Position numbers and translations under genes: made by a program. The notes beneath the pieces are model-generated. The model made no database searches. It was not told where the DNA came from and saw only the letters and a list, made by a program, of their open reading frames with translations. 486 bases of DNA, taken from Escherichia coli (GTDB lineage Bacteria; Pseudomonadota; Gammaproteobacteria; Enterobacterales; Enterobacteriaceae). Position 1 is the stretch's first letter, and each line of letters starts with the position of its first letter. The DNA lies in assembly GCF_003334405.1 (NCBI RefSeq), contig NZ_QOWM01000064.1; one strand, 5' to 3'. Shown here piece by piece: positions 1 through 486 of the stretch.

Positions 1-486
1 GAAGCTGCGCAGCGTTTCCCGGTGCAGGCGGTCGCGGGTGTACTCCACCAGCGGTGTGTCGCCGAGTTTCATGCCTGACAGCCAGCCGCTGCCGTAGGTC
101 AGCCATTCCACGGCGGGCAGGCTGTCCGGTATACAGCGGTTCGCCAGTCCCTGTGCGTTGTACGCATGTCTGGTCTCATGCTGCCAGAGCAGTGCTTCCG
201 TCTGCGGATGATGCACCGTCAGGTGTTCACTGGCGAGGCGGCCTTTACTGTCATAACCATAGTGCACCGTCACCCGGTGCCCTTCGCTGATATGGCTGAT
301 GTCTGTCAGCCAGCCGCGTTCGTCATACTGCCACCGCTCTGCGGTTTCGCCATTCACGGTGCGGTGCGTGAGGCGGTCTGCTTCGTCATAGTGCCAGTGG
401 GTGACCAGCCCCTCATCCTCGCTGCGGATAAGTTTGCCGGTCAGGTCGTGGTGATAACGCTGTGTGCGGCCGTCAAAGCCGGTTTC
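1..486 (-). CDS. Rhs-family YD-repeat protein, internal fragment of the conserved core (partial at both ends)
   Basis: Minus-strand frame with codons ending at + position 486 is open across the whole window (162 codons, no stop; translated by hand). The product has periodic YD-type motifs (RYHHDLTGKLI, WHYDEADRLT, WQYDERGWLT, HYGYDSKGRLAS, VEYTRDRL) spaced about 21-24 residues apart. GC is about 62% (301/486 by hand count). The paralog (rhsA/B/C/D-like) cannot be assigned from 486 bp, so no symbol is given. Confidence 0.88.
25..48 (-). repeat. YD-like repeat unit, degenerate (protein-level): VEYTRDRL
   Basis: Minus-strand codons gtg gag tac acc cgc gac cgc ctg. Tyr and Asp are separated by two residues, followed by RL, and the unit is in phase with the repeat periodicity. 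Confidence 0.45.
45..52 (-). other. Chi octamer (5'-GCTGGTGG-3') on the minus strand
   Basis: Plus strand 45..52 reads CCACCAGC, the exact reverse complement of GCTGGTGG. The match is exact; whether it functions as a RecBCD hotspot depends on the host, which is unknown. Confidence 0.5.
235..264 (-). repeat. YD repeat unit, canonical (protein-level): HYGYDSKGRL, matching YxYDxxGRL
   Basis: Minus-strand codons cac tat ggt tat gac agt aaa ggc cgc ctc. The plus-strand GTCATA at 250..255 is the reverse complement of TAT GAC (Tyr-Asp). Confidence 0.8.
304..333 (-). repeat. YD repeat unit (protein-level): WQYDERGWLT
   Basis: Minus-strand codons tgg cag tat gac gaa cgc ggc tgg ctg aca. Plus-strand GTCATA at 322..327 encodes the YD. 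Confidence 0.7.
367..396 (-). repeat. YD repeat unit, diverged (protein-level): WHYDEADRLT
   Basis: Minus-strand codons tgg cac tat gac gaa gca gac cgc ctc acg. Plus-strand GTCATA at 385..390 encodes the YD. Asp replaces the consensus Gly before RL. Confidence 0.65.
427..459 (-). repeat. YD-like repeat unit, degenerate (protein-level): RYHHDLTGKLI
   Basis: Minus-strand codons cgt tat cac cac gac ctg acc ggc aaa ctt atc. Matches a Y-x-x-D-x-x-G-x-L-I pattern, in phase with the ~22-residue periodicity of the other units. Confidence 0.5.

Follow-up and report, generated by a model that had tools for sequence, protein, structure and literature searches.

Among solved Rhs effectors, Pseudomonas aeruginosa Tse5 (PA2684; PDB 8cp6) is the best relative of Escherichia coli RhsC, with which it shares a layout consisting of an N-terminal piece of ~47 amino acids, a plug that starts with PVNP(L/M)LG, a shell of YD repeats, an aspartyl-protease plug, and a toxin of ~150 amino acids (PMC10684867). 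The Tse5 shell chain begins at the Lys47-Pro48 cleavage site, the N-terminal fragment is described as a 5-kDa PAAR-like domain, and the protein is secreted with VgrG1c/VgrG4 (PMC10684867), whereas the E. coli clade that contains RhsA, RhsB, and RhsC has no known VgrG partner (PMC7216683). Genes of the RhsA/B/C clade lie outside vgrG islands (PMC7216683), and the clade forms the 'neighbourless' branch, which does not adjoin vgrG (PMC7216683; PMC6730261). 'Neighborless' Rhs proteins (Rhs-Nb) have been described as a distinct family related to the Rhs proteins of the T6SS2 cluster (T6SS, type VI secretion system; PMC6730261, a review citing Ma et al. 2017). Here, we analyze a 486-base stretch of E. 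coli DNA (contig NZ_QOWM01000064.1 of assembly GCF_003334405.1), which we call the window. We conclude with high confidence that the window lies inside a gene of rhsC type from the RhsA/B/C clade of E. coli (or Shigella), that this gene encodes a classic 'RHS element core protein', and that the YD repeats of the window contribute to the wall of a toxin-enclosing shell. The family, the clade, and essentially the gene are already known. It belongs to one of the longest-studied repeat gene families of E. coli, and its significance is very small.

Six-frame translation revealed a single fully open frame, minus-strand frame 0, which runs through all 486 bases (162 codons) with neither a start nor a stop codon and is open at both ends of the window; stop codons interrupt the remaining five frames. 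Only short antisense or out-of-frame open reading frames (ORFs) appear in the ORF listing of the window, because the real Rhs ORF runs off both ends. The encoded peptide starts ETGFDGRTQRYHHDLTGKL and continues through WHYDEADRL, WQYDERGWL, and YGYDSKGRL into three degenerate units, which, with the four clear motifs located by a motif scan, gives approximately seven YD-type repeats with a period of ~21 residues. A 15-nucleotide direct repeat (93% identical) at positions 319-333 and 382-396, with its copies 63 nucleotides or 21 amino acids apart, is the DNA trace of this period (WQYDE/WHYDE on the minus strand) and not a separate element. Non-coding readings of the window were rejected: no Rfam family matched at gathering thresholds, no inverted repeats were found, and the sole direct repeat is explained by YD periodicity. 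Plus-strand ORFs, such as the one at 54-290 (78 amino acids, GTG start), lie antisense to the Rhs frame and were rejected as unsupported; we attribute the 54-290 ORF to the GC richness of the coding strand (GC content of the window, 57-67%).

Profile and genome searches identified both the family and the clade. First, the curated NCBIfam equivalog NF041261 ('RHS element core protein') matched all 162 residues (E=3.6e-102, 343 bits, profile positions 675-836 of 1261); the whole-protein cut-off of this model, 2000 bits, is out of reach for a 162-residue fragment. TIGR01643 (YD repeat; E=1.2e-4) and two Pfam RHS_repeat matches (E=2.8e-5 and 1.3e-3) were also found, and the Rhs/YD coding signal in the window is far beyond chance. 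Second, when the window was compared by megablast with 5,426 complete E. coli genomes, 3,881 of them contained matches; these amounted to 11,208 places, and the median was three per genome. The best 30 rows and a sample of 40 were all annotated as rhsA, rhsB, rhsC, RHS element core protein, or RHS repeat-associated core domain-containing protein. Third, the top match was rhsC of E. coli K-12, with three mismatches (99.4% DNA identity); 483 of 486 bases and 160 of 162 residues (98.8%) are identical, in register with codons 667-828, and the two differing residues are 763-764, which are Asn-Glu in K-12 RhsC and Glu-Ala in the window. Identity to K-12 RhsA and RhsB is 94.2% in DNA and 93.8% in protein, and identity to K-12 RhsD is 78.8% and 79.4%, respectively, so that the window is nearer to rhsA/B/C than to rhsD by both measures. 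RhsA and RhsB belong to the same clade as RhsC, are identical to it over the N-terminal 50 residues, and likewise have the core-ending motif at 1238, but they differ from the window at 28 bases, which are concentrated at minus-strand positions 217-279, and have different tails and chromosomal sites. The fourth YD motif of the window falls in the stretch that is most variable between rhsA/B and rhsC alleles in a table of variable sites.

A sequence-only reading of the window had called it Rhs/YD-repeat coding DNA without giving a strand, had guessed that it resembled the classic enterobacterial Rhs core, and had placed the distinguishing N- and C-terminal domains outside it. The sole open frame, the four YD motifs, and the NF041261 match bear out the first claim and assign it to the minus strand; the same profile match and the 99.4% identity to K-12 rhsC show that the guess was correct; and the window does cover only 162 codons in the middle of a gene of ~1400. 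The further claim, that the window does not suffice to settle the Rhs-containing family, is valid only if databases are set aside, as the 486 bases by themselves separate RhsC from RhsA/B and from RhsD and also sort the families that had been listed (Tse5, E=1.2e-20; teneurin-like chains, E=0.14; toxin-complex C subunits, no match at E<=10). Clade-specific sequence in a mid-shell Rhs fragment thus suffices for assignment without the terminal domains, and the window can be annotated 'rhsC-type RHS element core protein, internal fragment, minus strand'. Enterobacterial Rhs elements, T6SS PAAR-Rhs effectors, insecticidal toxin-complex C subunits, and teneurin-like or wall-associated proteins had moreover been treated as alternatives, which was mistaken: these groups overlap, and enterobacterial Rhs elements are themselves T6SS-type PAAR-like Rhs toxins.

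The window peptide and full-length RhsC were compared with all solved structures. The best matches of the 162 residues were Tse5 (E=1.2e-20, aligned to shell-chain residues 577-731), a T6SS Rhs-Vgr protein (1.1e-14), Tse15 (5.6e-14), and RhsA of P. protegens (3e-7), and Salmonella Rhs was also among the T6SS-type Rhs matches. Full-length RhsC matched Tse5 at 1e-125, P. protegens RhsA at 6e-82, teneurin-like chains at 1e-22, YenC2 at 1e-6, and TccC2 at 9e-5. Tse5 is a distant homologue, and its identity to the E. coli sequences in these alignments is partial. YenC2, TccC2, and the teneurins have a YD shell and a C-terminal plug in common with RhsC, but they show no significant similarity to the window and either work with TcA/TcB partners or are eukaryotic; no such neighbours were found at the related loci that we inspected. 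These were seven in number (rhsC of K-12 and RM9131; rhsA of K-12, O157:H7 Z852, and WCHEC025157; rhsB and rhsD of K-12), with flanks fetched to ~5-10 kb beyond each gene end.

Toxin-complex C subunits of the TcC/YenC type resemble RhsC in their Rhs/YD shell and in their C-terminal aspartyl-protease plug, and it is on this plug only that full-length RhsC matches YenC2 and TccC2. That the window encodes such a subunit is nonetheless extremely improbable, as the Tse5 match of RhsC is stronger by more than a hundred orders of magnitude, the window itself has no Tc match among solved structures even at the permissive threshold given above, and tcA/tcB are not annotated in the fetched flanks of any inspected locus. 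The chance that the window belongs to a teneurin-like or wall-associated (WapA-type) YD protein is equally minute. Here too the shell fold is common, RhsC has a faint match to Pfam TEN_YD-shell (E=0.08), and the teneurin-like chains are matched on the C-terminal plug, but the matches of the window to teneurin-like chains (E=0.14-0.16) are not significant and near-identity to E. coli rhsC in DNA leaves no room for this origin. A vgrG/eagR-linked PAAR-Rhs effector (of the RhsD/E/G-type clades or a T6SS island), as opposed to a member of the neighbourless RhsA/B/C clade, is a closer candidate in that its overall architecture and YD repeats are alike; K-12 RhsD, of the RhsD/E clade, shares the family model and an almost identical N-terminal 50 residues with RhsC and ends its core with PLQQIDPMGL at 1249. 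We consider this origin very unlikely. Identity to rhsD is only 79% in both DNA and protein, compared with 99.4% to rhsC in DNA, and every sampled locus with at least 90% identity to the window is at an rhsA, rhsB, or rhsC chromosomal site with no vgrG annotated nearby. Membership of the Tc C subunits, of the teneurin/WapA-type proteins, and of the RhsD clade was rejected on sequence and neighbourhood.

Features of the 486-base window. Positions are plus-strand coordinates; residues and codons are numbered along the minus-strand frame unless assigned to RhsC.
Feature	Position	Strand	Basis
Internal fragment of rhsC-type Rhs core ORF	1..486	-	sole open frame; corresponds to residues 667-828 of K-12 RhsC, mid YD-repeat shell
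YD motif 1, YHHDLTGKL (peptide residues 11-19)	430..456	-	motif scan; inside Pfam RHS_repeat match, residues 14-48, E=2.8e-5
YD motif 2, WHYDEADRL (peptide residues 31-39)	370..396	-	motif scan; 15-nucleotide direct-repeat copy at 382-396
YD motif 3, WQYDERGWL (peptide residues 52-60)	307..333	-	motif scan; 15-nucleotide direct-repeat copy at 319-333
YD motif 4, YGYDSKGRL (peptide residues 76-84)	235..261	-	motif scan; Pfam RHS_repeat match, residues 54-88, E=1.3e-3
Degenerate YD-like units HAYNAQGL, LTYGSGWL, EYTRDRLHRE (peptide residues 90-162)	1..219	-	translation; within RHS_core profile match and Tse5 alignment
Codons GAA GCA (Glu-Ala), AAT GAA (Asn-Glu) in K-12 rhsC	193..198 (minus-strand codons 97-98)	-	alignment to K-12 rhsC

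The sole base differences between the window and K-12 rhsC form a patch of three alternating bases at plus-strand coordinates 194, 196, and 198 (GAAGC in the window, AATGA in K-12). The patch state of the window is common to K-12 rhsA, K-12 rhsB, rhsC of strain RM9131, and two genes at the rhsA locus. Outside the patch, 25 sites distinguish rhsC from K-12 rhsA/B, and the window has the rhsC state at every one of them. None of the complete E. coli genomes searched combines the K-12-type rhsC sequence with this patch state. The simplest reading is that the window represents an unsampled rhsC allele, for example from Shigella or a draft E. coli genome, that keeps the common patch state, in which case the K-12-type allele carries a derived micro-patch; micro gene conversion or an assembly consensus could also account for the combination. 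In plasmid and phage collections, only 93-95% matches were found, in records labelled plasmid or phage that are either megabase-sized or 2-15 kb long, and we take these matches as chromosomal or collapsed-repeat pieces and not as the source of the window. Whole-window matches of 94-95% included NZ_CP069827.1 (2,340 bp, a Klebsiella 'plasmid'), NZ_CP069926.1 (5,191 bp), and OR844789.1 and OR845342.1 (~3-kb 'Escherichia phage' records). These tiny records look like collapsed-repeat or contaminant contigs and not like real replicons.

Terminal domains were checked on the nearest full-length relative, K-12 RhsC (b0700; WP_000015200.1; 1397 amino acids). This protein scored 2683 bits against NF041261 over residues 1-1247, above the cut-off, and has DUF6531 at 46-123, followed by many RHS repeats, PF03527 near 1143-1179, and the Rhs-associated core (TIGR03696) at 1170-1247. 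The core-ending PxxxxDPxGL motif, which the sequence-only reading had proposed to look for, is present as PISNIDPLGL at 1238-1247 and is followed by a tail of 150 amino acids with nine cysteines. The corresponding motifs and tails are PVTNTDPLGL plus 130 amino acids in RhsA and PISDIDPLGL plus 164 amino acids in RhsB; RhsA, RhsB, and RhsD follow the plan of RhsC with different tails. As for the other checks that had been proposed, the short PAAR-like N-terminus of RhsC falls short of significance in Pfam, its C-terminal tail, the putative toxin, matches no Pfam family, and the fetched flanks of the seven loci contain no annotated vgrG or hcp and no tcA or tcB. At RhsC residue 48, PVNPLLGAKVLP lines up with the start of the Tse5 shell chain.

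Homology with solved Rhs effectors, and with Tse5 above all, suggests how the product of the window's gene might work. The YD beta-hairpins encoded by the window would be part of the wall of a closed, hollow beta-shell around the protein's own C-terminal toxin. A short PAAR-like N-terminal segment would dock on the VgrG spike, the DUF6531 plug would shut one end of the shell, and the aspartyl-protease plug that ends in PxxxxDPxGL would shut the other end and cut the toxin free inside. A T6SS would then fire the loaded shell into a neighbouring cell, the small gene directly downstream would protect the producer, and orphan fragments would let toxins be exchanged through recombination within the conserved core. 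The reading frame, the family and clade, and the layout and gene surroundings of the nearest relatives are shown here, whereas the intactness of the window's gene, delivery by a T6SS, and immunity conferred by ybfB-like genes are inferred. Interbacterial antagonism has been reported for Rhs-CT5 (Z5014), the locus named RhsA in PMC7216683 (PMC6730261, citing Ma et al. 2017).

Several observations weigh against this picture or against parts of it. First, the exact 486 bases are absent from the 5,426 complete E. coli genomes (the best match has three mismatches), a 100-nucleotide exact substring across the patch had no matches in contigs representing one genome per GTDB species or in JGI metagenomes, and no record matches a guessed full-length protein, namely K-12 RhsC carrying N763E/E764A. 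The intactness, terminal domains, and neighbours of the window's own copy are therefore those that its relatives lead us to expect. Second, the N-terminus of K-12 RhsC, MSGKPAARQGDMTQYGGSIVQGSAGVRIG, matches the Pfam PAAR_motif at residues 3-20 with an E-value of 0.23, which is not significant, and contains a single PAAR-like repeat with weak resemblance to two short solved chains (SalCis10, E=0.018; PDB 4jiv_D, E=0.31). Third, no Pfam family matched the C-terminal tail of RhsC, YbfB, YbfC (the products of small genes downstream of rhsC, described below), or the tail of the adjacent orphan fragment, and no NCBIfam family matched YbfB or YbfC. Because these proteins and tails match no family, it is position that points to their toxin and immunity roles, and YbfB and YbfC are on that ground putative immunity proteins. 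Fourth, the annotation of the flanks fetched around the seven loci includes neither vgrG nor hcp nor eagR. Finally, a T6SS is lacking altogether in K-12 and B strains of E. coli (PMC6730261).

The first of these points bears on the main alternative, namely that the window does not come from an intact gene but is a collapsed or chimeric repeat contig in which a short-read assembly mixed rhs paralogues, or else a pseudogene remnant. The window is just 486 bases long, none of the collections searched contains its exact sequence, and its three clustered differences from K-12 rhsC have the rhsA/rhsB state, as a consensus of paralogues could yield. A protein homology search with the 162 residues listed 103 matches, all of them partial Rhs fragments of at most 278 amino acids and many on contigs of 300-840 bp, and none of the matches listed was identical over the whole window. 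In addition, a published genome has a documented misassembly of rhsA and rhsC (PMC7216683). We nevertheless regard a collapsed contig or a pseudogene as unlikely. The frame is fully open, the rhsC state at all 25 diagnostic sites outside the patch is not expected of a mixed consensus, and the patch state also occurs in a natural rhsC allele, that of RM9131. Known orphan fragments span only profile positions 908-1261, downstream of the positions matched by the window. An intact rhsC-type gene seems the probable source of the window, to judge from its sequence and its relatives. As a separate matter, the partial protein matches illustrate that short-read assemblies routinely break within the Rhs core, typically leaving contigs of 300-800 bp.

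The last two points bear on delivery. Because K-12 and B strains have no T6SS, the route by which RhsA/B/C proteins are delivered is not established in such hosts, and the neighbourless clade might act there independently of a T6SS, as an intracellular module resembling a toxin-antitoxin pair or through another export route. We judge this quite improbable. It is compatible with the lack of nearby vgrG, with the weak PAAR signal, and with the fact that most E. coli conserve the clade at three sites in the chromosome, and an intracellular toxin-antitoxin-like module has been reported for Salmonella Rhs (PMC7043789). The absence of annotated vgrG at the inspected loci also agrees with the published placement of the clade (PMC7216683).

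The chromosomal sites of the inspected genes are as follows. In K-12 and RM9131, rhsC is preceded by kdpFABC and ybfA and followed, farther downstream, by ybgA and phrB. In both strains, ybfB overlaps the rhsC stop codon by one nucleotide and is followed by an orphan core fragment with ybfC and then by ISAs1 remnants; the orphan fragment corresponds to profile positions 908-1261, and ybfC overlaps its end. In K-12, the core-ending motif of the orphan fragment is degenerate (PVQYIDSMGL instead of PxxxxDPxGL), and the fragment is annotated as a pseudogene that is missing its N-terminus. YbfB is a very hydrophobic protein of 108 amino acids and is probably a multi-pass membrane protein; together, the nine-cysteine tail of RhsC and a hydrophobic YbfB could fit a toxin that acts in the cell envelope and a membrane immunity protein. 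In K-12, O157:H7 Z852, and WCHEC025157, rhsA lies between yibF/selAB upstream and yibA/yibG and yibH downstream. The neighbours of K-12 rhsB are the nik operon and yhhH-yhhJ, and those of K-12 rhsD are ybbP and ybbC.

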